DNA of 64,000 nucleotides, taken from the IMG/VR virus record IMGVR_UViG_3300025108_000015, positions 1 through 64,000 of that record; one strand, written 5' to 3'. Below the pieces are notes generated by a model. That model was not told where the DNA came from, searched no databases, and was given only the letters and a program-made list of their open reading frames with translations. Source of the stretch: a virus. Shown one piece after another: positions 1-64,000 of this stretch (the stretch's first letter is position 1; each line of letters begins with the position of its first letter). The translations under genes and the position numbers were made by a program.

Positions 1-765
1 AAGGCGTTCAAGGCCCTAAAGGTGTTCAAGGTGGAGTAGGTGATGAAGGTGCAGTAGGTGAATCACCTAAAGGTCAAAAAGGTGAAACGGGTGCTCAAGG
101 ACCATCAGGTATTTCAGGTGATAGTGGAAATAAAGGTATTCAAGGTTCTAAAGGTGTTCAAGGTCCTAAAGGTATAAAAGGTATAATTGGATTATCACCT
201 AAAGGTCAAAAAGGTGAAACTGGCGGTCAAGGTCCTAAAGGTGTTCAAGGTCCTAAAGGCGTTCAAGGCCCTAAAGGTGTTCAAGGTGGAGTAGGTGATG
301 AAGGTGCAGTAGGTGAATCACCTAAAGGTCAAAAAGGTGAAACGGGTGCTCAAGGACCATCAGGTATTTCAGGTGATAGTGGTGATAAGGGTGTTCAAGG
401 TTCTAAAGGTATTCAAGGTCCTAAAGGTATAAAGGGTATAATTGGATTATCACCTAAAGGTCAAAAAGGTGAAACTGGTGGTCAAGGTCCTAAAGGTGTT
501 CAAGGTCCTAAAGGCGTTCAAGGCCCTAAAGGTGTTCAAGGTGGAGTAGGTGATGAAGGTGCAGTAGGTGAATCACCTAAAGGTCAAAAAGGTGAAACGG
601 GTGCTCAAGGACCATCAGGTATTTCAGGTGATAGTGGTGATAAAGGTATTCAAGGTTCTAAAGGTATTCAAGGTCCTAAAGGTATAAAAGGTATAATTGG
701 ATTATCACCTAAAGGTCAAAAAGGTGAAACTGGCGGTCAAGGTCCTAAAGGTGTTCAAGGTCATA
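1..765 (+). repeat. Three near-identical 255-nt tandem repeats (85 aa) within the collagen gene
   Basis: aaggcgttcaaggccctaaaggtgttcaaggtggagtagg recurs at 1 and 256 and 511; the third unit diverges near its end. Confidence 0.92.
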
Positions 766-1022
766 AAGGTGCTCAAGGTCCTAAAGGTATACAAGGCAAT
801 ACTGGTGGTGAGGGTCAAAAAGGCCAGACTGGCGCTTCACCACTTGGTGAAACTGGTTCTAAAGGTCAACAAGGTGGTGTTGGTGATAAAGGTAACCAGT
901 TATCGGGTGGATATTTTGAATGGGATGAGTCTTTAGATAAGTTGGTATTCAAAGAATATGGTTATTCAAGTGGTGACCCTCTTTATGTAGTAGAAACTTA
1001 CTTCAGTGGTTCATCTTATTAA
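3..1022 (+). CDS. Collagen-like (Gly-X-Y) fibre protein, 5'-truncated by the window edge; probable tail or head fibre
   Basis: Not in the ORF track. The frame starting at nt 3 is open to TAA 1020-1022 and reads GVQGPKGVQGGVGDEGAVGESPKGQKGETGAQGPSGISGDSGNKGIQGSK..., ending in a ~43-aa non-collagen tail (GNQLSGGYFEWDESLDKLVFKEYGYSSGDPLYVVETYFSGSSY). Confidence 0.93.
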   Translation, partial: GVQGPKGVQGGVGDEGAVGESPKGQKGETGAQGPSGISGDSGNKGIQGSKGVQGPKGIKGIIGLSPKGQKGETGGQGPKGVQGPKGVQGPKGVQGGVGDEGAVGESPKGQKGETGAQGPSGISGDSGDKGVQGSKGIQGPKGIKGIIGLSPKGQKGETGGQGPKGVQGPKGVQGPKGVQGGVGDEGAVGESPKGQKGETGAQGPSGISGDSGDKGIQGSKGIQGPKGIKGIIGLSPKGQKGETGGQGPKGVQGHKGAQGPKGIQGNTGGEGQKGQTGASPLGETGSKGQQGGVGDKGNQLSGGYFEWDESLDKLVFKEYGYSSGDPLYVVETYFSGSSY

Positions 1023-1057
1023 ATAAATTTTCATATTTATAGTAAATAAGTTTAGTT

Positions 1058-1657
1058 ATGGAAAAGAATTTTAATTTTAGTGATAGTTCACGTAGCTTTG
1101 TAGACTACTCAAATTACTACTGGTTTAAAGATGGGTTTACTACTACCGAACTCGTTGATATAGAATCCCTCACAACTAATTTGGATTGGGTAGACGCTCA
1201 AACTGGTCAAGATGTTAAATCCAAAATCACCGATTATAGAAAATCAAAAATTAAATGGTGTCCACAATCAGACGAGTGGTATTGGGTATACGAAAAGTTG
1301 TCTGATATGATTAAGACCGCTAATAAAACCATGTGGGACTTTGAATTAACTCAAATGAGAGAGCAAATTCAATATACCGAATATTATAGTGGTGGTGGTC
1401 AGTACGACTGGCATATGGATTGTGGTATTGGTATACAAAACCAACGGAAGGTCTCAGTAACTGTTCAATTATCCGACCCATCTGAATATGAGGGTGGTGA
1501 TTTACAATTTAATATTGGTGGTAGTTGGATTACAGCACCACGTATAAAGGGAGCTGCTGTTATTTTTCCATCATTCTTTCTACACAGAGTAACACCTATA
1601 ACTAAAGGTACACGAAAGTCCTTTGTATTGTGGGTGGGTGGTGAACCATTTAAATAA
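1058..1657 (+). CDS. 2OG-Fe(II) oxygenase (PKHD/prolyl-hydroxylase-like)
   Basis: HxD (WHMD), distal His (FLHRVTP), Arg (GTRKS), YEGGDL motif. Confidence 0.9.
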   Translation: MEKNFNFSDSSRSFVDYSNYYWFKDGFTTTELVDIESLTTNLDWVDAQTGQDVKSKITDYRKSKIKWCPQSDEWYWVYEKLSDMIKTANKTMWDFELTQMREQIQYTEYYSGGGQYDWHMDCGIGIQNQRKVSVTVQLSDPSEYEGGDLQFNIGGSWITAPRIKGAAVIFPSFFLHRVTPITKGTRKSFVLWVGGEPFK

Positions 1658-1664
1658 ATAAAAT

Positions 1665-3359
1665 ATGAAGGTATTATTTGTATCAGGTTATCAAAAATCT
1701 AAATGGTCATTAGATACTTGGATTAACGAAGGTGCTGGTGGCACTGAGTATATGGTACTCAAATTAGCACACTTCTTCAAGTTAAACGGCCATGACGTTG
1801 TAGTTACTGGTGAAGTTGACACGGCCAACATCGATGGTGTTGACTATGTAGATTACGAGATACTTTCCAAAAAATATAAAAATAATAAATTTGATATTGT
1901 AATATGTACTAACTATATTCATTATATATTAGAGTTAGCTGAACATAATATTACATACGACAAATCTTACTTTTGGATTCATAATAATGAATACTATCCG
2001 TGGTGGAATGGTATGACATTAGACAACGATGGTTATGATTTCTTCTTAGATGATAGAATGACCAATATCGTATTGGTATCGAATTACCAAAAGGAAATAT
2101 TCTTAAAAAAATATCCTGAGTTAGAACACAAAGTCTTAGTAATCCCAAATGGTATAGACTTATCAGATTGGAGTGGTATATCTAACGAAAAGATACCAAA
2201 TAGATTTATATACTCATCAGCTCCAGATAGAGGATTAAAAACCCTACTAAGAATGTGGCCGAAGATAAAGGCGTTGTACTCAGACGCTACATTGATAGTA
2301 ACCTCACCACCATATGCACTTGAGTGGTATGATTCGTATAAAGATGATTTAGATGGTGTTACATTTTACGATGGGTTATCTCCAAAAAAATTATACAATG
2401 AGATTTCTAAATCCGAATATTGGCTGTACCCATCCAAGTATGATGAGACATTTTGTATAACGGCATTAGAAATGATGCAAGGTGGTGTTAAGATATTAAC
2501 AACTGATACTGGTAATCTTTTATCACTAATACAGGGGTGTGGTATAATCGAACCATCATCTAAAAAAGATAGTGATTTAGAAAGTTCACTTATACAACAA
2601 ATTGGTAGGTTGAAAAATTCACCATCACTATCTTCTAAAATATTAGATAATTCTAAAAATAAAGTAAAGCAATTTGACTTTCCAAAGATATATAAGAAAT
2701 GGATAGATACAATAGAGTTTAAAGTTATGCCTGATAAACTACATCCAGAATTGTATACATATTATGATAACGCTCATTCTTGGAAAGAACGATTCATAAC
2801 ATACTCAGCTAAAACTAAAGAATGGGATTTGATTGTAGATGAACCATTTACAAATACATTCTCATTTCCATTATTTACTCCTGAGTTTTGTAAAATGATT
2901 AGGGAAGAAGCTGAGTATGCAGATGCTTGGACAGTTGATAGGCATGAAAATTATCCAACCACTGATATGATATTAGAAACTATTGGAATGCAGGACATTT
3001 ATATGGATGTTCTAAAAGAGTATGTCATGCCACTTTCGATTCATATGTGGGAATTGGAAGGTAAGGGTTGGGATAACCTAACATCAGAAAACTTTTTAGC
3101 CAGATACACGCCAAATGCTCAAGGTCATTTATCAATACACCATGATATGTCTGACATTACGTGTTTAGTACAATTATCAAACCTCACTGAATATGAGGGT
3201 GGTGGTACATGGTTCAGACGACAAAAACAATTATTAAAAAATGATATAGGGTATGTAACTTTACATCCTGGAAATATAACCCATAAACATGGGGCAAGAG
3301 CGGTATCGTCAGGTAAAAGATATATCATAGTTTCCTTTATGAGAAATACGGAAAGATAA
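1665..3359 (+). CDS. GT4 (GT-B) glycosyltransferase fused to a PLOD-like procollagen lysyl hydroxylase domain
   Basis: N-half has GAGGTE, YSSAPDRGL and E-x7-E (ETFCITALE). From ~nt 2727: LHPELYTYYDNAHSWKERFI, FPLFTPEFC, ENYPTTDM, FLARYTP, IHHDMS, YEGGGTWF, HPGNITHKHG and KRYIIVSF, collinear with the recalled PLOD C-terminal domain. Confidence 0.88.
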   Translation: MKVLFVSGYQKSKWSLDTWINEGAGGTEYMVLKLAHFFKLNGHDVVVTGEVDTANIDGVDYVDYEILSKKYKNNKFDIVICTNYIHYILELAEHNITYDKSYFWIHNNEYYPWWNGMTLDNDGYDFFLDDRMTNIVLVSNYQKEIFLKKYPELEHKVLVIPNGIDLSDWSGISNEKIPNRFIYSSAPDRGLKTLLRMWPKIKALYSDATLIVTSPPYALEWYDSYKDDLDGVTFYDGLSPKKLYNEISKSEYWLYPSKYDETFCITALEMMQGGVKILTTDTGNLLSLIQGCGIIEPSSKKDSDLESSLIQQIGRLKNSPSLSSKILDNSKNKVKQFDFPKIYKKWIDTIEFKVMPDKLHPELYTYYDNAHSWKERFITYSAKTKEWDLIVDEPFTNTFSFPLFTPEFCKMIREEAEYADAWTVDRHENYPTTDMILETIGMQDIYMDVLKEYVMPLSIHMWELEGKGWDNLTSENFLARYTPNAQGHLSIHHDMSDITCLVQLSNLTEYEGGGTWFRRQKQLLKNDIGYVTLHPGNITHKHGARAVSSGKRYIIVSFMRNTER

Positions 3360-3404
3360 CCTACATACTATTTATATAATGACTAATAGTATTTAGGAGC
3401 ATAA

Positions 3405-4568
3405 ATGTCAGTAAACATTCCAATTTGGCCAGGTTCAGGCTCATTCGCAAGTGGTTCATCAACTCCATTTGGGTATTTTGATAGTGATACACAATTCCAA
3501 TCAGATGCCCCCAAAGTGGCTGAGTGGTGTGCTAAACGTTTGGGTTACCCTATAATCGATATTGAATTACAAGATATCAATATGTTCGCTTGCCTCGAAG
3601 AAGCTGTAAGTGAGTATTCATCTCAAGTAAACCAATATAGAGCAAAAGAGAATATGTTATCTATTCAAGGTTCTGACTTGGATTTGGATTTGACAAATAC
3701 AAATATGAACGCTAATATGCAAAACTTAGTAAATATTGCTAAGGATTATGGTACTGAGGCACTTAGTGGTGGTAAAGTAACAGTATATACTGGTTCATTT
3801 GAAATGGTTGCAGGTCAACAAATTTATGACCTTGGTGATGATAATAACGTAAACTTAGAAAATGGTGTAATTGCAAATGGTGTAACGCTTCGTAGAGTAT
3901 ACCACACACAACCACCAGCAATCATTAGATACTTTGACCCATTCGTAGGTACTGGTATGGGTTCACAACAAATGATGGAAACCTTTGGGTGGGGTAACTA
4001 CTCGCCAGGTGTTTCTTTTATGATGCAACCAATGTTTGATGACCTTTTAAGACTTCAAGCAATAGAATTCAACGATAAGATTCGTAAATCATCATATGGA
4101 TTCCATGTTGATGGTCAGAGAATTAGACTATATCCAATTCCAAGTGGTGGTGATACTGGCGCTAAGGTGTATTTTGATTATACATTAGATAGTGAGGTAA
4201 ATTCACCAATAGCAAACTCAAACGTAGTGAGTGATTTGTCTAACGCTCCATTTGGAAGATTAGTATACTCAAATATCAATTCATCAGGTAAACAATGGAT
4301 TGCTAGATACTCATTAGCATTGGCTAAAGAGATGTTAGGTGCAGTTCGTTCTAAGTTTTCTTCTATACCAATACCGGGTGCTGATGTAACACTTGATGGG
4401 TCTGACCTTCGTAACGAAGCATCTGCTGAAAAAGAAGCATTGATGACTCAATTGACTGAAATGTTGGAATCAACATCTCGTAGAGCATTGATGGAAGCGA
4501 GAAAAGAAGAATCGGAGTATTTAGAAGAAACTCTAAATAGAGTACCAAGACCAATTTTTATAGGATAA
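3405..4568 (+). CDS. Neck protein (T4 gp13-like)
   Basis: RLGYPIIDIELQD...ACLEEAVSEY and C-terminal IPGADVTLDG..LRNEA..EKE resemble gp13-like proteins; first gene of the neck-tail block; AGGAG RBS. Confidence 0.7.
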   Translation: MSVNIPIWPGSGSFASGSSTPFGYFDSDTQFQSDAPKVAEWCAKRLGYPIIDIELQDINMFACLEEAVSEYSSQVNQYRAKENMLSIQGSDLDLDLTNTNMNANMQNLVNIAKDYGTEALSGGKVTVYTGSFEMVAGQQIYDLGDDNNVNLENGVIANGVTLRRVYHTQPPAIIRYFDPFVGTGMGSQQMMETFGWGNYSPGVSFMMQPMFDDLLRLQAIEFNDKIRKSSYGFHVDGQRIRLYPIPSGGDTGAKVYFDYTLDSEVNSPIANSNVVSDLSNAPFGRLVYSNINSSGKQWIARYSLALAKEMLGAVRSKFSSIPIPGADVTLDGSDLRNEASAEKEALMTQLTEMLESTSRRALMEARKEESEYLEETLNRVPRPIFIG

Positions 4569-4572
4569 CCAA

Positions 4573-5100
4573 ATGGCACTATTCGGTGGACAACGAGATA
4601 TGGCTCTATTCAATAAAGTGAATAAAGAACTTATCAACGACATTATTGATACTGAAATCTACTATTACCAAGTAGCCTTGACTGATACAAAGTCAAATCT
4701 ATATGGTGAGGGTAAAGATAAGGTATTCAATCAGCCGATTAAAATACCATCTATTATTGAGAGGGGTCAGTCAAGTCAAATATCCGATGATTTCGGCCAA
4801 TCATACTCACGTGAAGTTCAGTTTAGATTTCTTCGTGATACTTTGGTTGAAAAAGCACTTGTGCCAGAGGTTGGTGACGTTATTGAGTGGAATGGTGAGT
4901 ATCATTTAATCGATGCCCAATATTCGTATCAATATGTTGCTGGTAAAAACCCACAAACATGGGATGGCGGTGATTCACAAGGTCTTAATGTATCCATTAT
5001 ATGTGATACACACGTTACACGTCAAACTTCTATCAAATTGGTAGATACTTATAAAGGTAATTCACGACAAAATGATAATGAAGTTCCATTAGGATTGTAA
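4573..5100 (+). CDS. Neck/head-closure protein (T4 gp14-like)
   Basis: Lies between gp13-like and gp15-like genes; LYGE...F and PEVGDVIEW motifs. Confidence 0.6.
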   Translation: MALFGGQRDMALFNKVNKELINDIIDTEIYYYQVALTDTKSNLYGEGKDKVFNQPIKIPSIIERGQSSQISDDFGQSYSREVQFRFLRDTLVEKALVPEVGDVIEWNGEYHLIDAQYSYQYVAGKNPQTWDGGDSQGLNVSIICDTHVTRQTSIKLVDTYKGNSRQNDNEVPLGL

Positions 5101-5101
5101 A

Positions 5102-5938
5102 ATGGCTCAAAAGTATAGAAACGAAGACAAATCTAAACCAAACCTTACTCAAACACAATCTTCAACATCAGAAGATGTGAAATTGAATAAGGCAAATCAG
5201 ATACGTAGGGACCAAGACAACGTAAAAAACGTTTCTGTTGGTATTTACGATGTTGATACTGCATTTAAGAACTTTTTAGAGGTAGATATTAAACCTACTG
5301 TTGAAGATGATGGTAGATTTTATCCCGTACCTGTAATGTATGCTTCTCCTGAGAAGTGGGCAAGTTCACAACGTGATGGTTTTATGAAAGACGATAACGG
5401 AATGTTATTAACACCTGTTATATCGTTCAAACGAAATAATCTTTCAATAAACACCGATTTAGCTAAATTAAAAGTAGCACAAAACGAAGATGCTCATCAA
5501 ATGTTCGAGAGAACGTATAGTAAGACCAATAGATACGACCAATTCTCAATATTAACTGGTCAATCTCCTAAAAAAGAATATATGTCGGTTGAAAGACCTG
5601 ATTATGTAAATTTAGAGTATGAAGTAGTTGTATGGTGTGATTATATGGAACAAGTCAATAAGATTGTTGAACAAATCGTATTTTTCCAAGGACGTTCCTT
5701 TGGTGATAGATATAAATTCCAAATAAAAGGTGAGTCGTATTCATTTGAAACCATATCTGAAATGGGACAAGATAGAATTACACGTGCCAATATCAGTCTT
5801 ACAGCGAAAGCGTATATAATGCCGGAATATGCCGGAATTTCAAATAATACTAAACGTAAGATATCGATAGGTAAGGTTTTGTGGAATACTAATATAACTG
5901 GTGAAAATGATTCTACAATACCGAGTGGTAATCAATAA
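5102..5938 (+). CDS. Tail terminator / sheath stabiliser (T4 gp15-like)
   Basis: VPVMYASPEKW, TPVISF, RPDYVNLEYEVVVW...QVNKIVEQI; precedes the sheath gene. Confidence 0.6.
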   Translation: MAQKYRNEDKSKPNLTQTQSSTSEDVKLNKANQIRRDQDNVKNVSVGIYDVDTAFKNFLEVDIKPTVEDDGRFYPVPVMYASPEKWASSQRDGFMKDDNGMLLTPVISFKRNNLSINTDLAKLKVAQNEDAHQMFERTYSKTNRYDQFSILTGQSPKKEYMSVERPDYVNLEYEVVVWCDYMEQVNKIVEQIVFFQGRSFGDRYKFQIKGESYSFETISEMGQDRITRANISLTAKAYIMPEYAGISNNTKRKISIGKVLWNTNITGENDSTIPSGNQ

Positions 5939-5977
5939 TTTTTACATATTTATATAATACAACAAATATAACAAGTT

Positions 5978-6259
5978 ATGGAAGAAAAGCAAATTATTAA
6001 ATTTACTGAAGACGAAGTAAGTAAAATTCAAACATTACAACAAAAAGTATTAACTATTAATACAAGAGTTGGTGAGGTTGAGATAGAAATAAATGGGTTA
6101 GAAACTGTATTTCAAGAGTTAAAACAACAAAAACAATCTCTTATATCTGAATATAAGCAATTAGGTACTCAAGAAACGGAACTAGCAGTTGAATTAAAAG
6201 AGAAATATGGTGAGGGGACTTATGATATTTCCAAAAATGAGTTCACGCCTACAAAATAA
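5978..6259 (+). CDS. Small coiled-coil hypothetical protein
   Basis: 93-aa E/K/Q-rich heptad-like ORF in its own intergenic setting. Confidence 0.6.
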   Translation: MEEKQIIKFTEDEVSKIQTLQQKVLTINTRVGEVEIEINGLETVFQELKQQKQSLISEYKQLGTQETELAVELKEKYGEGTYDISKNEFTPTK

Positions 6260-6329
6260 GTAGTCGTTTAGTTATTTTTTAATGTATTTATAATAAGGAA
6301 AACCGAAATTTATATTTTAGGAGAAGAAA

Positions 6330-8678
6330 ATGGCTGAAAGAATTGTAAGTCCTGGAGTTTTTACAAGAGAAAAAGACCTCTCATTTTTACCACAAGGTAT
6401 TGGTGAGATAGGTGCGGCACTTATCGGACAATCGATAAAGGGCCCTGCTTTCGTACCAACGAAAGTAGAATCATTTCAAGAATTCCAACAAAAATTTGGT
6501 GGTCTTACTGAGGATTCATATCTTCCGTATACCGCTCAATCGTATTTAGAAGAAGCAGGTACTGCAACTATCGTAAGAGTATTAGGTAAAGATGGATATA
6601 CCGCAAAACCAATCGCATTGGTAGTATCTTCATCAGCTGGTCAAAAGGTAGGTGCTTTACTACATCCGACTACTACTTTAGGTAGTGGTGATTTTGACGA
6701 CAGTATCATTACCGGTGTTAGTGCTTCTGCATTCTTACTAACCCTAAGTGGTAGTTCAGTAACAAGTGGTAGTGATGATGTAAATGTTAATTCAGCATCA
6801 CTTGACCCGGCAGACGAAAACTATATTACTAAGTTATATGGTTACTCTCCTAAGTCATCTAAAGATGCTTACACTCAATTAAACTTCTCAACATTCCAAG
6901 CAGAATCGCTTGCTAAAGATGGTGAAGTACCAACCGTATCACTTGTTAAAGTGGACGTTGACTATACTAACGCATATTCTGAAGCATCTACTCCATGGAT
7001 TAAATCACAAAAGGTAGCAGGAACTGCTGCTAACTTGATTAAATTCCATACATTATCTCATGGTAACTCTACTAACTACGAATTCAAAGTAGGTATTAGT
7101 AATATCAAACTTGCATCTGAGGTGCCAGGTTCTGAATATGGTACATTTAGTGTTGTAGTACGTAGAGTAGACACTGGAAAGATTCCTAATTCAATTTTCG
7201 GCCAAAGTGTTCAAGATTCTGATACAAGACCAAATATTATAGAAGAATTTCAAGGTGTAAATCTTGACCCTAACTCACCAAACTACATCAAGAGAGTAAT
7301 TGGTGACAAATACATTACAGTTGATGATAATGGTAAATTAACTTCAAATGGTGATTATCCTAACGCATCCGCTCATATTAGAGTATCAGTTTCATCTGAT
7401 GTAGATGCTGGGTCAATCGACTCAACACTTGTACCATTTGGATTTGGTAAATTAACGTCACCATTACACGAAACTTACGACCTACCTTCTCCAACTTATA
7501 ATGTATCTCAGTCACTCGCTGGTGAATATAATAAGAGAGTATTTTTTGGTTATGATTTTGACTTTACGTCAACTGACAACTTAAACTTCCTACAACCACT
7601 TCCAGGTTCAAATGTTGAAAAAGTAGGTAATGACTTTGATTTGGCAGATTGTCACTCAAACGGGTCTACTATTACATTATCATCTGATATAGATGCTAAG
7701 AAGTTCTTAGTTCCATTCCAAGGTGGTTTCGATGGATTCGAACCAAATAGAGTGGTAAATGTAGGTAAGGATATTATTGCCGGTAACAACCAAGGTATGG
7801 ATATGTCATCAGCTACCGCTGCTGGTACATTAGCATATAGAAAAGCTATCAACTCAATCTCTAATCCAGATGAGTTCGATATCAATATGGTAGTACTTCC
7901 AGGTGTAATCAATAGACTACACTCTTCAGTAACCACATTCGCTAAAGATATGTGTGAAGATAGATTAGATTGTTTCTACGTAATGGATGCTGGTGCATAT
8001 CAAGATTCTATTGCAACTGTAAACAACTCACTTACTTCATTCGACTCAAACTATGTTGCTACTTATCACCCATGGGTTAAAATCCTTGATACTGATAAGA
8101 ACAAGCCAGTATGGGTTCCGCCAAGTGTTGTTCTACCAGGCGTTATCGCATTCAATGACTCGGTTGCTGCTGAATGGTACGCTCCCGCTGGTTTGAATCG
8201 TGGTGGTCTTCCAAATGTAATCGAAGTTAAGACACGTCTTACTCACGATGAGAGAGATACACTATATACGGCCCGTATTAACCCAATCGCTACGTTCCCT
8301 GGACAAGGTGCTACGGTATTCGGTCAAAAGACATTACAAGCTAAACCATCAGCATTGGATAGAATCAATGTAAGAAGATTGTTAATCGCAGTTAAGAAAT
8401 ACATCGCATCTTCAACAAGATACTTGGTATTTGAAAATAACACCGCTGCAACAAGAAATAGATTCTTGTCAATCGTTAATCCTTACTTAGAATCAATTCA
8501 ACAAAGACAAGGTTTATACACATTTAAAGTGGTAATGGATGATTCCAACAACACTCCAGATGTGATTGATAGAAACATTATGGTAGGGGAAATTTACTTA
8601 CAACCAACGAAGACTGCTGAATTCATTGTTCTTGATTTCAACATACTTCCAACTGGCGCTGCATTCCCTGAGGCATAA
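6330..8678 (+). CDS. Contractile tail sheath protein (gp18-like)
   Basis: SPGVFTREKDLS at the N-terminus; WVPPS, WYAPAGLNRG, INPIATFPGQG, FGQKTLQ, DRINVRRLL, LQPTKTAEFI. Confidence 0.97.
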   Translation: MAERIVSPGVFTREKDLSFLPQGIGEIGAALIGQSIKGPAFVPTKVESFQEFQQKFGGLTEDSYLPYTAQSYLEEAGTATIVRVLGKDGYTAKPIALVVSSSAGQKVGALLHPTTTLGSGDFDDSIITGVSASAFLLTLSGSSVTSGSDDVNVNSASLDPADENYITKLYGYSPKSSKDAYTQLNFSTFQAESLAKDGEVPTVSLVKVDVDYTNAYSEASTPWIKSQKVAGTAANLIKFHTLSHGNSTNYEFKVGISNIKLASEVPGSEYGTFSVVVRRVDTGKIPNSIFGQSVQDSDTRPNIIEEFQGVNLDPNSPNYIKRVIGDKYITVDDNGKLTSNGDYPNASAHIRVSVSSDVDAGSIDSTLVPFGFGKLTSPLHETYDLPSPTYNVSQSLAGEYNKRVFFGYDFDFTSTDNLNFLQPLPGSNVEKVGNDFDLADCHSNGSTITLSSDIDAKKFLVPFQGGFDGFEPNRVVNVGKDIIAGNNQGMDMSSATAAGTLAYRKAINSISNPDEFDINMVVLPGVINRLHSSVTTFAKDMCEDRLDCFYVMDAGAYQDSIATVNNSLTSFDSNYVATYHPWVKILDTDKNKPVWVPPSVVLPGVIAFNDSVAAEWYAPAGLNRGGLPNVIEVKTRLTHDERDTLYTARINPIATFPGQGATVFGQKTLQAKPSALDRINVRRLLIAVKKYIASSTRYLVFENNTAATRNRFLSIVNPYLESIQQRQGLYTFKVVMDDSNNTPDVIDRNIMVGEIYLQPTKTAEFIVLDFNILPTGAAFPEA

Positions 8679-8725
8679 TTGTAGAATTAGACTATTTATT
8701 AGAAAGAGATAATAGGAGATTATAA

Positions 8726-9214
8726 ATGGCACAGCTATTAGACCCAAATGAAATTATGTTCACCAACTTCGAACCGAAGATGTCAAATCGGTTCATTATG
8801 TATATTGAAGGAATTCCTGCATACTTGGTGAAAACCGCTGCAAGACCTGAAATTACAAATGGTAAGGTGACTATTGACCATATCAACACCCGTAGATATG
8901 TAAAAGGTCGTTCTGAGTGGAGTGACTTATCAGTAACTTTATACGATCCAGTAGTACCATCTGCTGCACAAGCTACTATGGAGTGGGTAAGACTACACCA
9001 CGAATCGGTAACTGGTCGTGATGGTTATTCTGACTTCTACAAAAAAGATATCACATTTAACAGTTTGGGTCCTGTTGGTGATAAAGTAGAAGAGTGGACA
9101 CTAAAAGGAGCATTTATCCAATCTGCTAATTTCTCTGACATGGATTATAGTGGTGAAGATATCGCTACTGTTGAAATGACATTGACTTACGATTACGCAA
9201 TACTACAATACTAA
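8726..9214 (+). CDS. Tail tube protein (gp19-like)
   Basis: 162 aa directly after the sheath; NRFIMYI, W.DLSVTLYD, EEWTLKGAF, TLTYDYA. Confidence 0.92.
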   Translation: MAQLLDPNEIMFTNFEPKMSNRFIMYIEGIPAYLVKTAARPEITNGKVTIDHINTRRYVKGRSEWSDLSVTLYDPVVPSAAQATMEWVRLHHESVTGRDGYSDFYKKDITFNSLGPVGDKVEEWTLKGAFIQSANFSDMDYSGEDIATVEMTLTYDYAILQY

Positions 9215-31710: not shown

Positions 31711-32285
31711 TAATCGTTGATGACTTTATCAAAGACGAGTCCCTTTTAAAGGAACTCCAAGAAGACACTCAGTTTTTTGAGAATAATGGTCAATATATGT
31801 GGTGGGGTGGTCCTTGGAATTCCAAGGCATCAACTCTTAAACAAAGGTTGATAGAAGAACTTTGGATTAAAAACTCACCATGGGATTTCCCAAGATATAA
31901 TTCAATCCAATTGGAAGGTTTTGAGTATTGGACAGGTCAATACTCGGCTGACGATGATAAACTGCATGAACTAAATATGCATTTTGACAAAGACGAGAAT
32001 CTATGGAATACTGAAGGTAAATTAGTAACACCAATTATTGGTACAGTTTACTATCCAGTCCCAATGGATATTGAAGGTGGGTATTTGGAAATATTTAGTG
32101 GTGGTGACGATAACGAACCGGAACGTATTAAAGCCAAACATAATAGGTTAGTCATATTTCCAGCCGGCCAATACAAACATAGGGTTACTGAAGTTACAAA
32201 GGGTAATCGTAGCGCAATCGCAATAAACCTATGGGCATCTGCGCCAAGTGGTGTAGAAAATGGTGAAATAATTTTGGAAAAATAA
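31707..32285 (+). CDS. 2OG-Fe(II) oxygenase
   Basis: MHFDKD (HxD), EGGYL, KHRVTEV, NRSAIAINLW. Confidence 0.82.
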   Translation: MIIVDDFIKDESLLKELQEDTQFFENNGQYMWWGGPWNSKASTLKQRLIEELWIKNSPWDFPRYNSIQLEGFEYWTGQYSADDDKLHELNMHFDKDENLWNTEGKLVTPIIGTVYYPVPMDIEGGYLEIFSGGDDNEPERIKAKHNRLVIFPAGQYKHRVTEVTKGNRSAIAINLWASAPSGVENGEIILEK

Positions 32286-45701: not shown

Positions 45702-46062
45702 GAATAGGGGTGAAGTAAAAGAACTCGTTTGGAATCTAAAACAAAAATTTGGAGAAGAATTAATACTAATAACACGTGGAAATACTGATGGTATAGAAAA
45801 ATGGGTACGTAAGTTCTCATTAGAATTAGGTGTTAAGTATATAGAGTATAATCCAGCACATACTATAATGTCATTATATAGTGGCATGGAATCTGAATAT
45901 TATGGTAAGCCATATCACCCAACTCAGCCTTTACATCAATATGATTGTGTAGTCAGAGGTTCAGATAAGTTATACTTCTTTGGGGAAATTAAAAAAAATG
46001 AATTCAACCATTTTAAACGAGTATTAAGTCGTAATGGTAAAACTGCTAAATTTATACAATGA
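45667..46062 (+). CDS. Hypothetical protein, possibly SLOG/YspA-like
   Basis: MRIALLGS...ITRGNTDGIEKW...LGVKYIEY. Start set at ATG 45667. Confidence 0.45.
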   Translation: MRIALLGSPTYENRGEVKELVWNLKQKFGEELILITRGNTDGIEKWVRKFSLELGVKYIEYNPAHTIMSLYSGMESEYYGKPYHPTQPLHQYDCVVRGSDKLYFFGEIKKNEFNHFKRVLSRNGKTAKFIQ

Positions 46063-47894
46063 ATATAATAGGAATGCACACCGGCCATGATGCATCATTA
46101 TCGTTAGTACGTAATGGCAAATTAGTATCATCATTAAGCGTTGAAAGATACAGTAGGGTAAAGAAAGATGAAGTATTAAGTAGAGAGTTCTTTAACCACT
46201 TTCTACAAGTAAACGAAATGACTATTGATGATATAGATTGTATCACAATGGCATTTTGGAACTATGATAATTGTAATTGGATAAAACTATACAGCCCAAC
46301 CAATTCCGTTTATCCACTTAATACATTTGGCGCACAACGACAAGACACGAGAATACTCAACCACTTGGATGAGTTTCCATACAAACCAGAATATGTTGAT
46401 GGGCTTGGGATATCTCTGCCGGACTTTATAGACAACATCGACCCTCCATTTGGGCCTGAAGTGATACAACATAGTGAATCATTTCCATTGATAATTGATA
46501 TAGAGGGGTACACCCGACCAATTAATGGTTGCTTTGTAAGACATCATACTGCCCATGCTGCAGCTGCATTTTATACATCACCATTTCCAAGGGCAGCTGT
46601 ATTTACGGCTGACGCTTCGATGCATACTCCAAAAAATTGTAGTACCTCAATGGTTGGTAATGGTAGTATACTACAATCTTTTAAATCTCCTGAATTTATG
46701 TTGGGGAACTTCTATGATGTAGCTACTGAGTTTTGTGGGTTAGGGCCGGGAACATTAAAAGCAGGTACATTAATGGGATTATCTTCATTCGGTAATGTAA
46801 ATGGTAAGACCATGGAGCAGTGGGAAAAATGGTGTCTCCCATTTAATCAAATTAGTACTGAATATCACCGATATAGTGATTGGTTATTTTCAGAAATCAG
46901 TGGTAGATACCCATTCATAAGTACAGCACGTAAAGAGTACGTAAATAAAGAACCAGGTTATCAGTTTATAAATAGAATATACCAAACAGTGTATTCAAAA
47001 GAAGAATCAGATTCTCAAGAAGTCATGGATATTGCTGCAAGTATTCAATATTTATTAGAACGTGCTCTTATTAAGTATATCAATGAATTGTATGAAGATA
47101 CTAAAAATTTCAACGATGGTAATTTGTGTTTAGCCGGTGGTACATTTTTAAATTGTAACGCAAATTATAAGATATTAAAAGAAACAAAATTTAAGAATAT
47201 ACACTTTTTCCCAGCGTGTGGTGATGATGGAATACCAGCTGGTTCGGCATTGTTTTACTATCACTTTAATTTAGGTGGTAAACGTGTTAACTACACTACA
47301 AATGAACTTGCTTATTTAGGTGTTACATATGACCACCAACCTGAAACTGACACAAATGCAGTTCCATTAGATTTGGATGTAGTTGCTCAAAATATTGCTG
47401 ATGGTAAAATTGTGTGTTGGTATCAAGGTCACTCTGAAGTAGGTCCACGTGCATTGGGTAATCGTTCTTTTATAAGTGACCCTCGTAATAAAGAGATGAA
47501 GGATATTCTAAACTCAAGAGTTAAATTCAGAGAATGGTTTAGACCATTTGCGCCAGTAGTGTTAACCGAAGATAAGGAGGAGTGGTTCAATATGGATTTT
47601 GAGTCACCATTTATGTTACATACTGTACCATGTAGAAAGCCACAAGAAATACCATCAGCAGTTCATATAGACAATACATCACGTGTTCAGACTTTAACAA
47701 GAGACCATAACCCTATATTTTACGATTTGATTTCTAAATTTAAGGACATAACTGGTGTGCCAGTTGTACTAAATACTTCACTGAATGTAAAAGGTGAACC
47801 TATTGTGGAAACGCCCGAAGATGCAATGAAATTATTTGATGAGTCTGATGTTGATATATTAGTAATCAACGATATGATGTATTTTAAAAATTAG
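46059..47894 (+). CDS. Carbamoyltransferase (NodU/CmcH/TobZ family)
   Basis: GHDAS, ERYSRVK, HHTAHAAAA, LAGGTFLNC, GDDG, EVGPRALGNRS, KFREWFRPFAP, LNTSLNVKGEPIV. Confidence 0.93.
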   Translation: MNIIGMHTGHDASLSLVRNGKLVSSLSVERYSRVKKDEVLSREFFNHFLQVNEMTIDDIDCITMAFWNYDNCNWIKLYSPTNSVYPLNTFGAQRQDTRILNHLDEFPYKPEYVDGLGISLPDFIDNIDPPFGPEVIQHSESFPLIIDIEGYTRPINGCFVRHHTAHAAAAFYTSPFPRAAVFTADASMHTPKNCSTSMVGNGSILQSFKSPEFMLGNFYDVATEFCGLGPGTLKAGTLMGLSSFGNVNGKTMEQWEKWCLPFNQISTEYHRYSDWLFSEISGRYPFISTARKEYVNKEPGYQFINRIYQTVYSKEESDSQEVMDIAASIQYLLERALIKYINELYEDTKNFNDGNLCLAGGTFLNCNANYKILKETKFKNIHFFPACGDDGIPAGSALFYYHFNLGGKRVNYTTNELAYLGVTYDHQPETDTNAVPLDLDVVAQNIADGKIVCWYQGHSEVGPRALGNRSFISDPRNKEMKDILNSRVKFREWFRPFAPVVLTEDKEEWFNMDFESPFMLHTVPCRKPQEIPSAVHIDNTSRVQTLTRDHNPIFYDLISKFKDITGVPVVLNTSLNVKGEPIVETPEDAMKLFDESDVDILVINDMMYFKN

Positions 47895-47924
47895 GATTTA
47901 ATAAATATATTTTGTATATTTATA
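47891..47924 (+). promoter_or_regulatory. Variant promoter TTAGG-N18-GTATATTTA overlapping a TATTTATA box
   Basis: Same 18-nt spacing; heads the glycosyltransferase run. Confidence 0.5.
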
Positions 47925-47950
47925 ACTAAATAAAAAGGAAATAGTTACGA

Positions 47951-49360
47951 ATGGAATTACCAAAACTACGAAAAGTAGACCCAACTAAACCGAAGAAGAA
48001 AAAGATTCTACTTCTATCGGATGACCTCAGATTACATAGTGGTATTGCCACACAATCAAAGGAGATTGTTTTTTCAACAATTCATAAGTATGATTGGGTT
48101 CAACTTGGAGCCGCACTAAAACATCCTGAAGAGGGTAAGATGTTTGATGTTTCAGCTGATACACAAAAGGAAACTGGTGTAGAAGATGCATCACTCAAAA
48201 TATACGCAAGTAGCGGATATGGGAATCCTGAAATACTAAGGCAACTTATTAACATTGAGAAGCCTGATGCAATCTTACACTTCACTGACCCACGTTTTTG
48301 GAAGTGGTTGTACGATATGGAGCATGAAGTAAGAGAGTTCGTTCCTATTATGTATTACAATATTTGGGACTCATTACCAGACCCAATGTGGAATGCACCA
48401 TTTTATGCATCGTGTGATATGCTGATGTCAATCTCAAAACAAACATATGGTATCAACAAGAGAACTCTTGAGAAATATGGTATGGCGAAGGAAGATTGGG
48501 CATACAAATATATCCCACATGGAGTATCCAAACACTTCAAACCATTACCATCGGATGACGCAAAGTTAGTGGAGTTCAAAAACAGATTTGGATTAAACGA
48601 ATACGACTTTGTAGTTCTATGGAACAATAGAAATATTCGTAGAAAAGTACCAGGTGATGTAGTTCTTGCATTCAATGAGTTTGCAAAACAACATGAGGAT
48701 AAGAAGGTATGTTTATTCTTCCATACTCAACGAAGTGATGACAATGGAACTGACTTGAATGAGGTAATCAAACACAATGGTCACTATGGTGATTACAAGT
48801 TTACTGATGCTAAATTCACTACCGAAGATTTAAACCTATATTACAATTCAGGTGATATCATTCTAAACATCGCTTCTAATGAAGGTTTCGGACTCGCCTC
48901 TTGTGAAGCATTGAGAGCTGGTACACCAATTATAGTCAACGTAACAGGTGGTCTTCAAGACCAATGTGGTTTTGATTTGGAAGGTGAAACTCTAACTGCT
49001 GAAGATTATGTTGAGATTGGGTCACTACATGATAGAAGAAAATGGTCTAAGTATGAATTATTAGGACGTGGTAGTTGGGTTTATCCTGTATGGCCATCTA
49101 ATAGGTCACTACAAGGTTCACCACAAACACCATATATATTCGATGATAGATGTGACTTTATGGATGTAGCTGAGAAGTTAGGAAACGCTCTTGAAGATGG
49201 TAGAGACCACTTAGAATACGTGGGACATATTGGACATGAGTGGGTTCAAGGTGAGAGTGGGATGGCATCCGAAAATATGGGTGGTAAGTTTATTGACGCA
49301 ATTGATGGTTGTCTTGAAAATTGGACACCTCGTAAAAGATTTGAGATTTATTCAGTATGA
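47951..49360 (+). CDS. GT4 glycosyltransferase
   Basis: KILLLSDD..LHSGIA, NNRNIRRK, NEGFGLASCEALRAGTP. Confidence 0.88.
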   Translation: MELPKLRKVDPTKPKKKKILLLSDDLRLHSGIATQSKEIVFSTIHKYDWVQLGAALKHPEEGKMFDVSADTQKETGVEDASLKIYASSGYGNPEILRQLINIEKPDAILHFTDPRFWKWLYDMEHEVREFVPIMYYNIWDSLPDPMWNAPFYASCDMLMSISKQTYGINKRTLEKYGMAKEDWAYKYIPHGVSKHFKPLPSDDAKLVEFKNRFGLNEYDFVVLWNNRNIRRKVPGDVVLAFNEFAKQHEDKKVCLFFHTQRSDDNGTDLNEVIKHNGHYGDYKFTDAKFTTEDLNLYYNSGDIILNIASNEGFGLASCEALRAGTPIIVNVTGGLQDQCGFDLEGETLTAEDYVEIGSLHDRRKWSKYELLGRGSWVYPVWPSNRSLQGSPQTPYIFDDRCDFMDVAEKLGNALEDGRDHLEYVGHIGHEWVQGESGMASENMGGKFIDAIDGCLENWTPRKRFEIYSV

Positions 49361-50676
49361 AAAAGTTATGTGTAGTTAGTTGCCCTATTGCAACGAGAAG
49401 TGGGTATGGTGCTCGTTCGAGGGATTTAGTCCGTTCGTTAATTCAAACCAAAGGTGAAGAGTGGGATATAAAAATCTTACCACAACGATGGGGTAATACA
49501 CCTCAAAATGCACTCACAACGGAAGATGTAGACTTAACATCAAGGCTCATTAGTGGTAATATAAATCAGAAGCCAGACGTGTGGATGCAGATTACAATTC
49601 CAAGTGAGTTCCAACCCGTTGGTCACTTTAACATTGGGGTATCGGCTGTTATTGAAACTACCGATGCATCTGCTGAATTTATTGATGGGTGTAATCGTAT
49701 GGACCTTACATTGGTTTCATCAGAACACTCTAAGAAAACACTCGAAGTGGTTTATGATAAAATAAATGAAAAAACCAAAGAAAAGGTAGGTCAAACATCT
49801 CTAACAAAGCCGGTTGAAGTTTTATTCGAAGGATTTGACCCTAAGATTTACGATAATAAATCTGAAGTTCATCAATCTGTTAATGATGTACTAAGTAATG
49901 TGAAAGAATCTTTTACATATCTATTTGTTGGTCATTGGTTACAAGGTAACATAGGTCATGATAGAAAAAACGTAAGTGGTTTGATTCACACATTCCTAAA
50001 TACGTTTAAAAACAAAAAGAATCCACCTGCACTTATTCTAAAGACATCTATCACGGCACCTGGCATCACAAATGTACATGAGTTGAGAAAGAGAATCGAA
50101 ATGATTAAAGGTATGATTGATTCAAAGATACTACCAAACATCTATATTCTCGATGGTGACCTTTCAGATGAGGAGATGAATTCACTGTATAATCACCCAA
50201 AGGTAAAAGCACACGTATCATTTACACGTGGTGAGGGTTTTGGTAGACCTTTATTGGAAGCTTGTGTTAGTGGTAAACCAATCATTACATCAAATTGGAG
50301 TGGTCATGTAGACTTCCTTCACTCAGATTACAACTTCTTAGTAGGTGGTGAACTTCAGAATGTAGACAAATCGGCTGCAAACAATTGGATTAGGAAAGAG
50401 TCCAAGTGGTTTACAATTAATTATAATGACGCAGCTCATACTTTAAAAACAATCTACGATAATTATAAGAAAGCAGTTGAGAAGTCTCGTAAGAATCGTA
50501 AGTATGTAAAAGACAACTTTACACTTGATAATATGTCAAGTAAATTGTCCGAAATACTTGACATTTACAAAGTAGGTGATGGTCCACAACAAGTTGGATT
50601 AACGTTACCAACTTTGAAAAAGAAAGACACGCCAACTGAATTAAAATTACCAAAACTAAAGAAAGTAGGTGAGTAA
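49357..50676 (+). CDS. GT4 glycosyltransferase
   Basis: SGYG..SRD, LFVGHW, RKN, RGEGFGRPLLEACVSGKP. Confidence 0.88.
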   Translation: MKKLCVVSCPIATRSGYGARSRDLVRSLIQTKGEEWDIKILPQRWGNTPQNALTTEDVDLTSRLISGNINQKPDVWMQITIPSEFQPVGHFNIGVSAVIETTDASAEFIDGCNRMDLTLVSSEHSKKTLEVVYDKINEKTKEKVGQTSLTKPVEVLFEGFDPKIYDNKSEVHQSVNDVLSNVKESFTYLFVGHWLQGNIGHDRKNVSGLIHTFLNTFKNKKNPPALILKTSITAPGITNVHELRKRIEMIKGMIDSKILPNIYILDGDLSDEEMNSLYNHPKVKAHVSFTRGEGFGRPLLEACVSGKPIITSNWSGHVDFLHSDYNFLVGGELQNVDKSAANNWIRKESKWFTINYNDAAHTLKTIYDNYKKAVEKSRKNRKYVKDNFTLDNMSSKLSEILDIYKVGDGPQQVGLTLPTLKKKDTPTELKLPKLKKVGE

Positions 50677-51173
50677 TGCCCGATTACACGACAATGCATA
50701 GAAATCGAATTGCTGACGCTACTCGTATACCTAAGTCAAAATTAGAGAAAGGTATGGTAGCTAAAATCAGATACAAGAAAGTATCTGGTGAGGCCCGAGA
50801 TTATTATGTATTCGTGTTACAGCCAAAGTTTAAAACATACTTTCATTGTTTAGACTTAAAACACATCGCACCACCACAAATGCTAAAAATGGCATCTTCA
50901 TTAAATGAAGTAATCAGTTCAACCTCGAAAGTAAAAAAGTTAGATTTGACTAAATTAAATCTTGATGTAAACTCTAAACAATTTTACCTTAATGAGATTA
51001 GAAATAAGAAGTTAAAAGGTGGTTATCGTACATTAGTTGAAAAGAATATATCAACTGTTATGGTATATAACTATGATTATGGTATCTTCGATAAGATAGA
51101 TACTAAAGCAAAACGTAGACAAGAAGATAGTCTTGAAAAGGATGACACTCCGGACTTCTTAAAAGGAATATAA
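50676..51173 (+). CDS. Hypothetical protein (basic)
   Basis: 165-aa coupled ORF; no confident motif. Confidence 0.6.
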   Translation: MPDYTTMHRNRIADATRIPKSKLEKGMVAKIRYKKVSGEARDYYVFVLQPKFKTYFHCLDLKHIAPPQMLKMASSLNEVISSTSKVKKLDLTKLNLDVNSKQFYLNEIRNKKLKGGYRTLVEKNISTVMVYNYDYGIFDKIDTKAKRRQEDSLEKDDTPDFLKGI

Positions 51174-51176
51174 TAT

Positions 51177-51803
51177 ATGAAAATCAGTTACGCAGTCACA
51201 GTATGTAATGAGTTCTTAGAGATTCAAACCTTACTACAAAAGTTAATCACACTAAAACAACCACAAGATGAGATAGTTGTATTATGGGATTCTAAGAATG
51301 GTGACCCAATGGTAGAAACATATCTCCGTAAAATGAACGCGGAGAAGACTCAATTCCTATGGTATCCTTATGAGTTCGATGGACACTTTGCAGATTTAAA
51401 GAATGAACTTACCAAACATTGTAGTGGGGATTACATCTTTCAGATTGACGCAGATGAGTACCCACATGAAACTCTTATGGATAACATCCACTCAATCTTG
51501 GAAGTAAATGATGTTGATGTGATTCTCGTACCACGAGTAAATACAGTCGAAGGGTTAACTCAGAACCATATTCAAAAGTGGGGATGGAATGTCAACGAGG
51601 GGGGTTGGGTAAACTTTCCAGACCCTCAATGGAGAATATACAAAAACTCAGATACGATACGTTGGGAAAATAAGGTACACGAGAAACTCGTTGGATATGA
51701 TACTATCTCTAATCTACCATGGGCAGAGGAACTATCCTTATACCACCCAAAACAAATTGAACGACAAGAAAAGCAAAACGAATATTACGACACCCTCGTG
51801 TAA
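51177..51803 (+). CDS. GT2 family glycosyltransferase
   Basis: KISYAVTVCNE, GDYIFQIDADE, FPDPQWRI, VHEKLVG. Confidence 0.85.
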   Translation: MKISYAVTVCNEFLEIQTLLQKLITLKQPQDEIVVLWDSKNGDPMVETYLRKMNAEKTQFLWYPYEFDGHFADLKNELTKHCSGDYIFQIDADEYPHETLMDNIHSILEVNDVDVILVPRVNTVEGLTQNHIQKWGWNVNEGGWVNFPDPQWRIYKNSDTIRWENKVHEKLVGYDTISNLPWAEELSLYHPKQIERQEKQNEYYDTLV

Positions 51804-51853
51804 TTCCATTTTGGAAACGAACGTGTGTCAAAAGAAAATTTAACAATTTTATT

Positions 51854-52678
51854 ATGAAAAAAACTATTGGTATTATAGGTAATGGCTTCGTTGGAGAGTC
51901 ACAAGCATTCGCGTTTTCCCCAACTACGAATGTTCGTATATTCGACATAGACCCCTTAAAAGCTACTCATACTCTTGAAGAAACATTAGAACAAGAATTT
52001 GTGTTTGTATGCTTACCCACACCAATGACTATGGATGGGATTCAAGATATTTCGTATATTGAGAACTTTTTCGAATCAATCACACCTAATGATGATACGA
52101 TATTCATTATTAAGTCTACGGTCTTGCCAGGTACTACACAAGGTTTGATTGATAAGTATGGGTACAATATAATTTTCTCTCCGGAGTTTTTGACCGAACG
52201 TACTGCGAAGTTGGATATGTTGACTCAATCACGAATCATCTTTGGTGGTAGTGAAGACTTGACTAAACGGGTAGAAGAATTGTTTACGGATAGATTTATG
52301 AATCGACACATCATCCATACTAATTCAACTACGGCAGAATACATCAAGTATATGAATAATACATTTTTTGCAACAAAAGTTGCAGTGATGAACGAGTTCT
52401 ATCGATTGAGTCAATGTATTGATGTTGATTGGAAAACGGCACTATATGGATTTGCTGCAGATGGTAGAGTCGGAGATAGTCATTTACACGTACCTGGTCC
52501 TGATGGTAAGTTGGGGTATGGTGGTACTTGTTTCCCCAAAGATGTAAACGCTATTATTAATTTTGCTAAAGAGCATGGAGTTTCTATGAACGCCATTGAA
52601 GGTGGTTGGGAAACTAATGTAGAGGTTAGGCCTGAACGTGATTGGGAACAATTGGAAGGTAGAGCAGTTTCTAAATGA
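51854..52678 (+). CDS. UDP-glucose/GDP-mannose dehydrogenase family protein (lacks the C-terminal domain)
   Basis: IGIIGNGFVG, CLPTP, IKSTV.PGT, SPEFL, KYMNNTF, GYGGTCFPKD. Confidence 0.9.
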   Translation: MKKTIGIIGNGFVGESQAFAFSPTTNVRIFDIDPLKATHTLEETLEQEFVFVCLPTPMTMDGIQDISYIENFFESITPNDDTIFIIKSTVLPGTTQGLIDKYGYNIIFSPEFLTERTAKLDMLTQSRIIFGGSEDLTKRVEELFTDRFMNRHIIHTNSTTAEYIKYMNNTFFATKVAVMNEFYRLSQCIDVDWKTALYGFAADGRVGDSHLHVPGPDGKLGYGGTCFPKDVNAIINFAKEHGVSMNAIEGGWETNVEVRPERDWEQLEGRAVSK

Positions 52679-63947: not shown

Positions 63948-64000
63948 TGCAGGTCGTGGAAGGCACCACGCATACAATTACAGTATTCAATCTTGGCAGA
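63913..64000 (+). CDS. Next gene of the glycan island, 3'-truncated
   Basis: ATG 63913 overlaps the previous gene: MKKNIIFIPAIDAGRGRHHAYNYSIQSWQ, running off the window. Confidence 0.5.
   Translation, partial: MKKNIIFIPAIDAGRGRHHAYNYSIQSWQ

Follow-up and report, generated by a model that had tools for sequence, protein, structure and literature searches.

The window analysed here is a 64,000-nucleotide stretch of viral DNA (positions 1 to 64,000 of IMGVR_UViG_3300025108_000015), which corresponds to bases 3125-67124 of a 178,076-bp IMG/VR phage record. It opens on a compact plus-strand module, comprising the C-terminal part of a collagen-like fibre, a 199-residue 2-oxoglutarate (2OG)-Fe(II) oxygenase, and a 564-residue protein which joins a glycosyltransferase (GT) of family GT4 to a lysyl hydroxylase (LH) domain. 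We consider it probable that this phage, a large, uncultured T4-like myovirus, modifies its own collagen-like fibres post-translationally, with the LH domain acting first, a GT25 enzyme adding a first sugar, and the GT4 domain adding a second. These enzymes are encoded directly after two giant lysine-rich collagen genes, so that the fibres are the probable target of both hydroxylation and glycosylation; what is modified, in which sequence and with which sugars, and how the virion might be affected, are matters that we infer. Below we set out the evidence on each enzyme and on the fibres, together with three alternative explanations.

The lysyl hydroxylase domain and its neighbouring fibres

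The fusion gene (window 1665..3359, plus strand) ends in a domain of residues 357-564 (2733..3359, plus strand; matched over residues 357-559) which, by sequence, predicted fold and catalytic residues, is a genuine LH domain of the PLOD/L230 family. In phmmer searches of the PDB it matched human LH3 at E 1.7e-29 (residues 2-203 of the domain against 502-713 of LH3) and mimivirus L230 at E 1.5e-22, and no other oxygenase at E below 0.4. The homology is collinear over approximately 200 residues and includes an N-terminal extension upstream of the catalytic core, which is absent in generic 2OG oxygenases; the Pfam label, for its part, is only OGFOD2-like. An AlphaFold model of the 564-residue protein, built on 47 sequences (predicted local distance difference test, pLDDT, 89.5), returned human LH3 as its top Foldseek match (E 7e-19), and superposed on the LH domain of L230 with a template modelling (TM) score of 0.87 (target-normalized), a root-mean-square deviation of 2.1 A and 29% identity. 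In L230, iron is bound by H825, D827 and H877, and 2OG by Y814 and R887 (Guo et al., 2018, PMC5802723). The aligned residues in the phage domain are H492, D494 and H542, and Y481 and R552, respectively, and all five are invariant in 47 homologs. L230 also forms a tail-to-tail homodimer via a leucine lock (L873) and an aromatic pocket of Y798, Y801 and Y831 (PMC5802723); L873 aligns with an invariant I538, Y798 with W462 and Y831 with I498; around Y801 the alignment has a gap.

Mimivirus L230, a bifunctional enzyme that hydroxylates collagen lysine and glucosylates the hydroxylysine (LH domain in PDB 6ax6, 6ax7 and 9nev), is among the closest known systems. Both proteins are virus-encoded and carry an N-terminal GT and a C-terminal LH domain in one polypeptide, both viruses possess collagen-like proteins of their own, and the iron and 2OG ligands are identical. 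L230, however, belongs to a eukaryotic giant virus rather than a tailed phage, and is approximately 895 rather than 564 residues long. Further, the phage GT is a GT4 enzyme (GT-B fold, E-x7-E motif) and not of the L230/LH3 type, and this phage adds a separate GT25, and its relatives a GT2, to the set. Finally, activity has been proven experimentally for L230, whereas the phage system is known from sequence and a structural model.

The proposed substrates are two collagen-like fibres. The window holds the C-terminal 339 residues of fibre B (3..1022, plus strand; reading frame open at its 5' end; Pfam Collagen E 1.9e-32), which in whole comprises 1078 residues (genome 910-4146), with 253 G-X-Y triplets in 20 runs. 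Fibre A lies just upstream and spans the record ends, in a 1246-residue reading frame (1244 residues to the stop) with 355 triplets. The record carries a 471-bp terminal repeat (genome 1-471 and 177606-178076), which may represent an assembly overlap rather than true genome ends, because it falls inside the collagen coding repeats of fibre A. Within the window, Tandem Repeats Finder reported a 255-bp (85-residue) unit at 1..796 on the plus strand (3.1 copies, 96% matches). Each unit contains nine strict G-X-K triplets, and the translation reveals two more lysines in one-residue-insertion kinks, G-E-S-P-K-G and G-L-S-P-K-G. Kinks of the general form G-x-S-P-x-G occur 18 times in fibre B and are missing from fibre A and from some other loci. 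The original prediction, made from the letters of this DNA, had described a collagen-like fibre with nine G-X-K triplets per 85-residue unit, a 2OG-Fe(II) oxygenase directly after it, and a GT4 fused to an LH-like domain, and all three descriptions are borne out by these searches and those of the oxygenase and GT4 domain reported below.

Lysine placement in fibre B is far from chance: lysine takes the Y position in 72 of the 253 triplets and the X position in none, and in fibre A it occupies Y in 76 of 355 triplets. Glycine follows 84 of the 89 lysines in fibre B and 78 of 88 in fibre A, versus 5% of those in other open reading frames (ORFs) of the genome. X-Lys-Gly is the site hydroxylated by PLOD-type enzymes (LH1-3, L230). 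Proline has the reverse preference, with 64 (fibre B) and 115 (fibre A) triplets bearing it at X and nearly none at Y, and the Y positions are also rich in serine and threonine. Hydroxylation of X-Lys-Gly lysines in these chains by the LH domain is supported indirectly, by the G-X-K-G placement and by the tracking of LH with Y-position lysine that is documented in the next section. Beyond fibres A and B, Pfam detected no collagen repeats in the phage genome. Fibre B terminates in a non-collagen domain of some 40 residues (900..1019, plus strand) ending in ...SGSSY, which resembles the ...SGSY end of fibre A and may serve as a trimerisation or registration knob. Pfam searches with the N- and C-terminal non-collagen domains of both fibres returned nothing significant; the N-terminus of fibre A gave a weak Hint/intein-splicing match (E 0.04) below the cut-off of that family.

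Lysine placement and synteny across loci

The protein collection contains 505 relatives of the fusion of similar length, and 297 viral contigs encode relatives; we fetched 80 loci, and based counts on the 61 with at least 2.7 kb of upstream DNA. The locus order is fibre A, fibre B, the oxygenase of about 200 residues, a GT2 (approximately 430 residues), the GT4-LH fusion, and then neck, gp15, sheath and tube genes. An upstream collagen of at least 40 triplets on the same strand was present in 60 of the 61 loci, the small oxygenase in 61 and the GT2 in 60; fetched loci that lack a collagen are cut short in sequence, and the GT2 is missing in one other lineage as well as in the present phage and two phages nearly identical to it. 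Across loci, the fusion is 49-62% identical and the small oxygenase 64-70%.

For comparison, a scan of IMG/VR for twelve GG dinucleotides spaced 9 nt apart yielded 118 arbitrary collagen-repeat loci (1.04 Mb). The 63 distinct collagens in these control loci have a median Y-position lysine content of 1.2% (interquartile range 0-11.5%), against 28.3% (14.7-30.6%) for the 76 distinct collagens of LH loci (Mann-Whitney p 5e-15, a value which overstates independence because the LH loci are from related phages), and X-position lysine is approximately zero in both sets. In the fibre nearest the enzyme genes of LH loci, Y-position lysine never falls below 10.7%. Co-occurrence of the homologs with GXK-rich collagens had been proposed as a check on the original prediction, and among phages it is pronounced. 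The control sample itself, drawn blind to LH, caught two further cases: the most lysine-rich control collagen (52% Y-position lysine, 442 triplets) shares its contig (L189) with a GT4-GT25-LH protein, and a second (24%) lies on a contig which also has an LH-like ORF. Conversely, the isolate Microcystis phage Mel-JY01 has neither LH nor GT25, and its collagen contains no lysine in approximately 170 triplets.

Glycosyltransferases and the proposed pathway

A free-standing GT25 of 263 residues is encoded outside the window, at genome 105045-105836 (L082:1456-2247; PF01755, 46 bits against a cut-off of 24). The animal hydroxylysine galactosyltransferase, COLGALT1, is a member of GT25, and was the only protein in the PDB that the phage enzyme matched (E 4e-14, over residues 305-534). 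The same enzyme is 34% identical (E 6e-35) to a GT25 domain flanked by GT4 and LH in 788-residue relatives (loci L080 and L081). In each of six LH phage genomes there is exactly one GT25, free or fused: besides the present phage, four nearly complete ones that lack the fused form have a single free gene elsewhere in the genome, and the one with the fused form has no other GT25. Three large, LH-free, collagen-bearing phages have none. This free-or-fused ("Rosetta stone") pattern links GT25, GT4 and LH in a single pathway, and points to LH acting first, GT25 second and GT4 third. Transfer of galactose to collagen hydroxylysine is a candidate activity of the phage GT25, supported by its co-occurrence with LH.

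The LH domain has many other relatives. A search of 1.84 billion cluster representatives gave 2103 at E <=1e-3, and 88 at E <=1e-30; the domain is C-terminal in most of the full-length best matches, and internal in one of 570 residues. Stand-alone LH proteins of approximately 200-250 residues include one from a Blastocatellia metagenome-assembled genome, GT25-LH proteins of approximately 440-455 residues carry the JGI label 'GR25 family glycosyltransferase', and further size classes fall at approximately 560-610 (GT4-LH) and 740-860 residues. Eukaryotic PLOD-like LH domains (from a choanoflagellate and a cestode) are 33-38% identical to the phage domain. Metagenomic phage GT25-LH (approximately 440-455 residues) and GT4-GT25-LH (approximately 750-860 residues) fusions have the same LH domain (48-77% identical), always at the C-terminus, and a matching collagen neighbourhood (in L080, L081 and the L189 contig); as far as we could find, they have not been published. 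They differ from the present phage, in which GT25 is a separate, distant gene and the GT2 found in most relatives is absent. On the L189 contig (L224), the GT4-GT25-LH fusion at 1-2070 is followed directly by a Sulfotransfer_2 gene (2073-2657), which suggests that some phages may sulfate their glycans or hydroxylysine.

The N-terminal domain of the fusion (residues 1-351; 1665..2717, plus strand) is a GT4 enzyme of the retaining, GT-B type, with Glyco_transf_4, Glycos_transf_1 and Glyco_trans_1_4 all matching above their Pfam cut-offs within residues 60-293. Its E261-x7-E269 motif is invariant in 47 homologs, and by Foldseek the modelled fold resembles PimA, MshA, BshA and WaaG (target-normalized TM 0.6-0.74).

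Taken together, these enzymes would constitute a pathway in the cytoplasm of the infected cell. The Fe(II)/2OG-dependent LH domain would convert Y-position lysine of Gly-X-Lys-Gly in fibres A and B to hydroxylysine, presumably before the triple helix folds, by analogy with animal LH. The new hydroxyl would then be O-glycosylated, with the first sugar most likely supplied by the free-standing, COLGALT1-like GT25, and the GT4 domain might add a further alpha-linked sugar, analogous to the animal Glc-alpha1,2-Gal step. Relatives may extend the series with their GT2, which this phage lacks. The original prediction had inferred that this tailed phage makes glycosylated hydroxylysine fibres; the identity of the LH domain, the synteny and the lysine placement all support modified fibres, but the first sugar more likely comes from the separate GT25. 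The human system provides a close parallel (LH3/PLOD3 in PDB 6fxk, 8one and 8zgc; COLGALT1 in 9evj), as the LH domains are collinear over approximately 200 residues, the phage GT25 is COLGALT1-like, and the proposed succession of LH, inverting GT25 and retaining GT mirrors the passage from hydroxylysine through galactosyl-hydroxylysine to glucosyl-galactosyl-hydroxylysine. The phage fusion nevertheless lacks the GT-A and accessory domains of LH3, and endoplasmic reticulum (ER) targeting, and a GT4 takes the place of the glucosyltransferase domain.

It is conceivable, although in our estimation unlikely, that LH hydroxylates fibre lysines while GT4 and GT25 glycosylate something else, such as fibre serine or threonine, a different protein of the virion or a glycan of the host envelope, leaving hydroxylysine free or available for cross-linking or hydration. 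GT4 enzymes, like PimA, MshA, BshA and WaaG, typically use lipid, sugar or small-molecule acceptors, the collagens offer abundant serine and threonine at Y, and a glycan-synthesis island of approximately 20 kb, described below, could serve other targets. On the other hand, GT4 (and in relatives both GT4 and GT25) is covalently joined to LH, as would be expected of enzymes that act in succession on a single substrate, the only solved relatives of the phage GT25 are the hydroxylysine galactosyltransferase COLGALT1, and GT25 tracks LH (six of six genomes against none of three).

Several observations do weigh against modification of the fibres by this three-enzyme route. We know of no GT4 that acts on hydroxylysine, so the acceptor we assign to the GT4 domain is a guess, and its GT-B fold is unlike the GT-A domains of LH3. 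The GT25 gene lies approximately 100 kb from the module. The L230 dimer-pocket residue Y831 is an isoleucine in the phage protein. Since the LH loci belong to related phages, neither the synteny counts nor the p-value derive from independent observations. Several control collagens with 20-26% Y-position lysine are on contigs in which no LH was found, most of these being fragments and one being 95% complete. Lastly, GT4-LH homologs (43-46% identical) on two bacterial chromosomes stand by themselves in housekeeping surroundings, and neither has a collagen gene within 10 kb.

These bacterial homologs, of the same architecture and far from any collagen, lend some weight to a different account, in which the fusion tailors a glycan or metabolite or modifies the host, the LH-like domain acts on a non-collagen protein, an amino-sugar or a lipid, and adjacency to the fibre genes has no functional meaning. 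The OGFOD2-like Pfam label, and the fact that all phage loci belong to a single group of related phages whose structural genes keep a fixed order, would also be compatible with it. We regard this account as improbable, however, given that, among solved oxygenases, PLOD and L230 resemble the domain far more closely than any other, and that enrichment of Y-position lysine is specific to LH-linked collagens, including the two loci caught blind in the control sample. Moreover, one of the bacteria with a solitary homolog, a member of the Chromatiales, has a G-X-K collagen elsewhere in its genome, with an N-terminal hydrophobic leader and lysine at 9 of 39 and 8 of 42 Y positions and at no X position. 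Because of this Y-lysine collagen, the association of LH with collagen survives at the genome level in bacteria, in what is a single case.

The small oxygenase and the genomic setting

The 199-residue oxygenase (1058..1657, plus strand; 2OG-FeII_Oxy_3, E 8.3e-14; PHROG 61) is separated from the fusion gene by just 7 nt. In sequence it comes closest, among solved structures, to PiuC/PKHD hydroxylases, its H119-x-D121, H176 and R186 are invariant, and its fold is nearest those of PiuC, PHD2, the chlorella virus enzyme vCPH and the prolyl 4-hydroxylase (P4H) of P. putida (TM 0.5-0.65, on a model with a pLDDT of only 69). Sequence and model both place the enzyme in the prolyl-hydroxylase/PKHD (PiuC-like) clade, and it is not a lysyl hydroxylase. 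Nor is it a classical collagen P4H, because proline makes up at most 1.6% of Y positions in the partner collagens, and less than 3% of X positions in 23 of 50 proximal collagens; the oxygenase is found in 61 of 61 loci, irrespective of the proline content of their collagens. One might speculate that it targets the G-x-S-P-x-G kink, which would fit only part of the loci. Full-text searches for the function of PiuC, and for Mel-JY01, found no papers.

Could this oxygenase be the main collagen hydroxylase, acting on X-position proline or on the proline of the kink, with the LH-like domain in an auxiliary or structural role? Its membership of a clade with PiuC, PHD2 and vCPH, its occurrence in every locus and stronger conservation than the fusion, and the incidence of kinks in 34 of 70 LH-locus collagens versus 0 of 65 control collagens, are each in keeping with that idea. 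We nonetheless think it the least probable of the explanations considered here. The LH domain appears to be under selection as an enzyme because its catalytic residues are invariant; X-position proline is scarce in many proximal collagens and Y-position proline essentially lacking; the kinks are missing in fibre A and at some loci; and prolyl and lysyl activities are not mutually exclusive.

The module sits immediately ahead of the genes for neck, gp15, sheath and tube. The first gene after it encodes a neck or head-tail adaptor protein resembling T4 gp13 (3405..4568, plus strand), followed by a gp15-like protein (5102-5938) and the sheath (6330-8678), by which the nearest isolate is Mel-JY01 (57% identity). 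Megablast of window positions 1-9000 against GenBank phages gave zero matches, and the equivalent locus of Mel-JY01 did not contain the module. Using the 564-residue fusion as a tblastn query against isolate phages, we obtained partial, distant matches alone, with the GT and oxygenase domains apart, and no isolate with the whole protein.

A ATATTTATA-type motif lies in the intergenic space at 1034..1041 (plus strand), 17 nt before the start codon of the oxygenase, an assignment based on position only. The form (C/T)ATATTTATA occurs on the plus strand at window positions 1034, 3369, 5947, 6285, 10762 and 47917, 15-45 nt ahead of the start codons of the oxygenase, neck, sheath and other genes. 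Across the whole window the ATATTTATA octamer is not more frequent than chance, and we offer a shared, lineage-specific, late-type promoter element as a possible lead only. The T4 late promoter TATAAATA was considered and rejected, as its 11 matches compare with 10.3 expected and those adjoining the module genes are on the minus strand; the plus-strand reading ATATTTATA is the only orientation that sits before genes. Elsewhere, a second small 2OG-FeII_Oxy_3 oxygenase (ORF of approximately 220 residues) is found in the structural region at window positions of about 31965-32231 (genome 35089-35355), and three fibre-like ORFs of 364, 635 and 259 residues, two of which begin M-x-x-W-K-K-V, precede fibre A at genome 170309-174748, outside the window.

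Towards its end, the window enters the glycan-synthesis island of approximately 20 kb (plus strand, window 46059-64000, running on to genome position 69938 or thereabouts). Its transferases include two GT4 enzymes, at least three GT2 enzymes and a TOD1/MUCI70-like GT, alongside a carbamoyltransferase and an FkbM methyltransferase. Sugar-modifying enzymes comprise a UDP-Glc/GDP-Man dehydrogenase, a UDP-GlcNAc 2-epimerase, a GFO/IDH/MocA oxidoreductase and two NAD epimerase/dehydratases, and the island further encodes a 2-hydroxyacid dehydrogenase, a CMP-sugar cytidylyltransferase and NeuB. The ensemble looks like a phage-encoded nonulosonic-acid pathway plus transferases, and could either provide donor sugars for fibre glycosylation or alter the surface of the host.

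Modified collagen-like fibres are not without precedent in prokaryotes and viruses. Bacillus anthracis BclA, and the P4Hs of B. anthracis and of PBCV-1 (vCPH), exemplify O-glycosylated or hydroxylated collagen-like fibres, and the prolyl-hydroxylase-type fold of these P4Hs is shared by the 199-residue oxygenase; BclA glycans, though, are attached to threonine and not to hydroxylysine. Hydroxylation of bacterial collagen-like proteins was predicted by Iyer et al. (2010, PMC2938197), via other oxygenase families, and a 2022 review names collagen hydroxylation and glycosylation among viruses for mimivirus only, and for no phage collagens (PMC8968730). Our own full-text search, which had most subscription journals outside its scope, likewise found lysyl hydroxylation or glycosylation of viral collagen for mimivirus only and for no phage, in agreement with the supposition of the original prediction that such a phage system had not been described. 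The phage system would accordingly represent known collagen-LH chemistry in a new setting, published, as far as we could find, only for animals and mimivirus.

More broadly, and much more tentatively, a widespread aquatic T4-like lineage may build animal-style glycosylated hydroxylysine on its virion fibres with a set of three enzymes, a PLOD-type LH, a COLGALT-type GT25 and a retaining GT, which are shuffled between free and fused forms. The glycan might be extended with products of the nucleotide-sugar island, including its NeuB/CMP-sugar pathway, and the collagen-modifying enzymes of animals and giant viruses might have been recruited from the phage and bacterial pool of these domains.

The glycosylation of collagen hydroxylysine is regarded as a feature of animals, mimivirus being the one exception among viruses. 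If the pathway proposed here is correct, this chemistry would also take place in the bacterial cytoplasm and on phage virions, and would bear on the origin of the animal PLOD and COLGALT enzymes. It would equally provide compact, ER-independent enzymes (564 residues, or 263 plus 564) for producing hydroxylated, glycosylated recombinant collagens in bacteria. Such a system would also offer a new angle on the stability, protease resistance or receptor specificity of phage fibres. The free-or-fused pattern of GT25 predicts a three-step pathway which is testable in E. coli.

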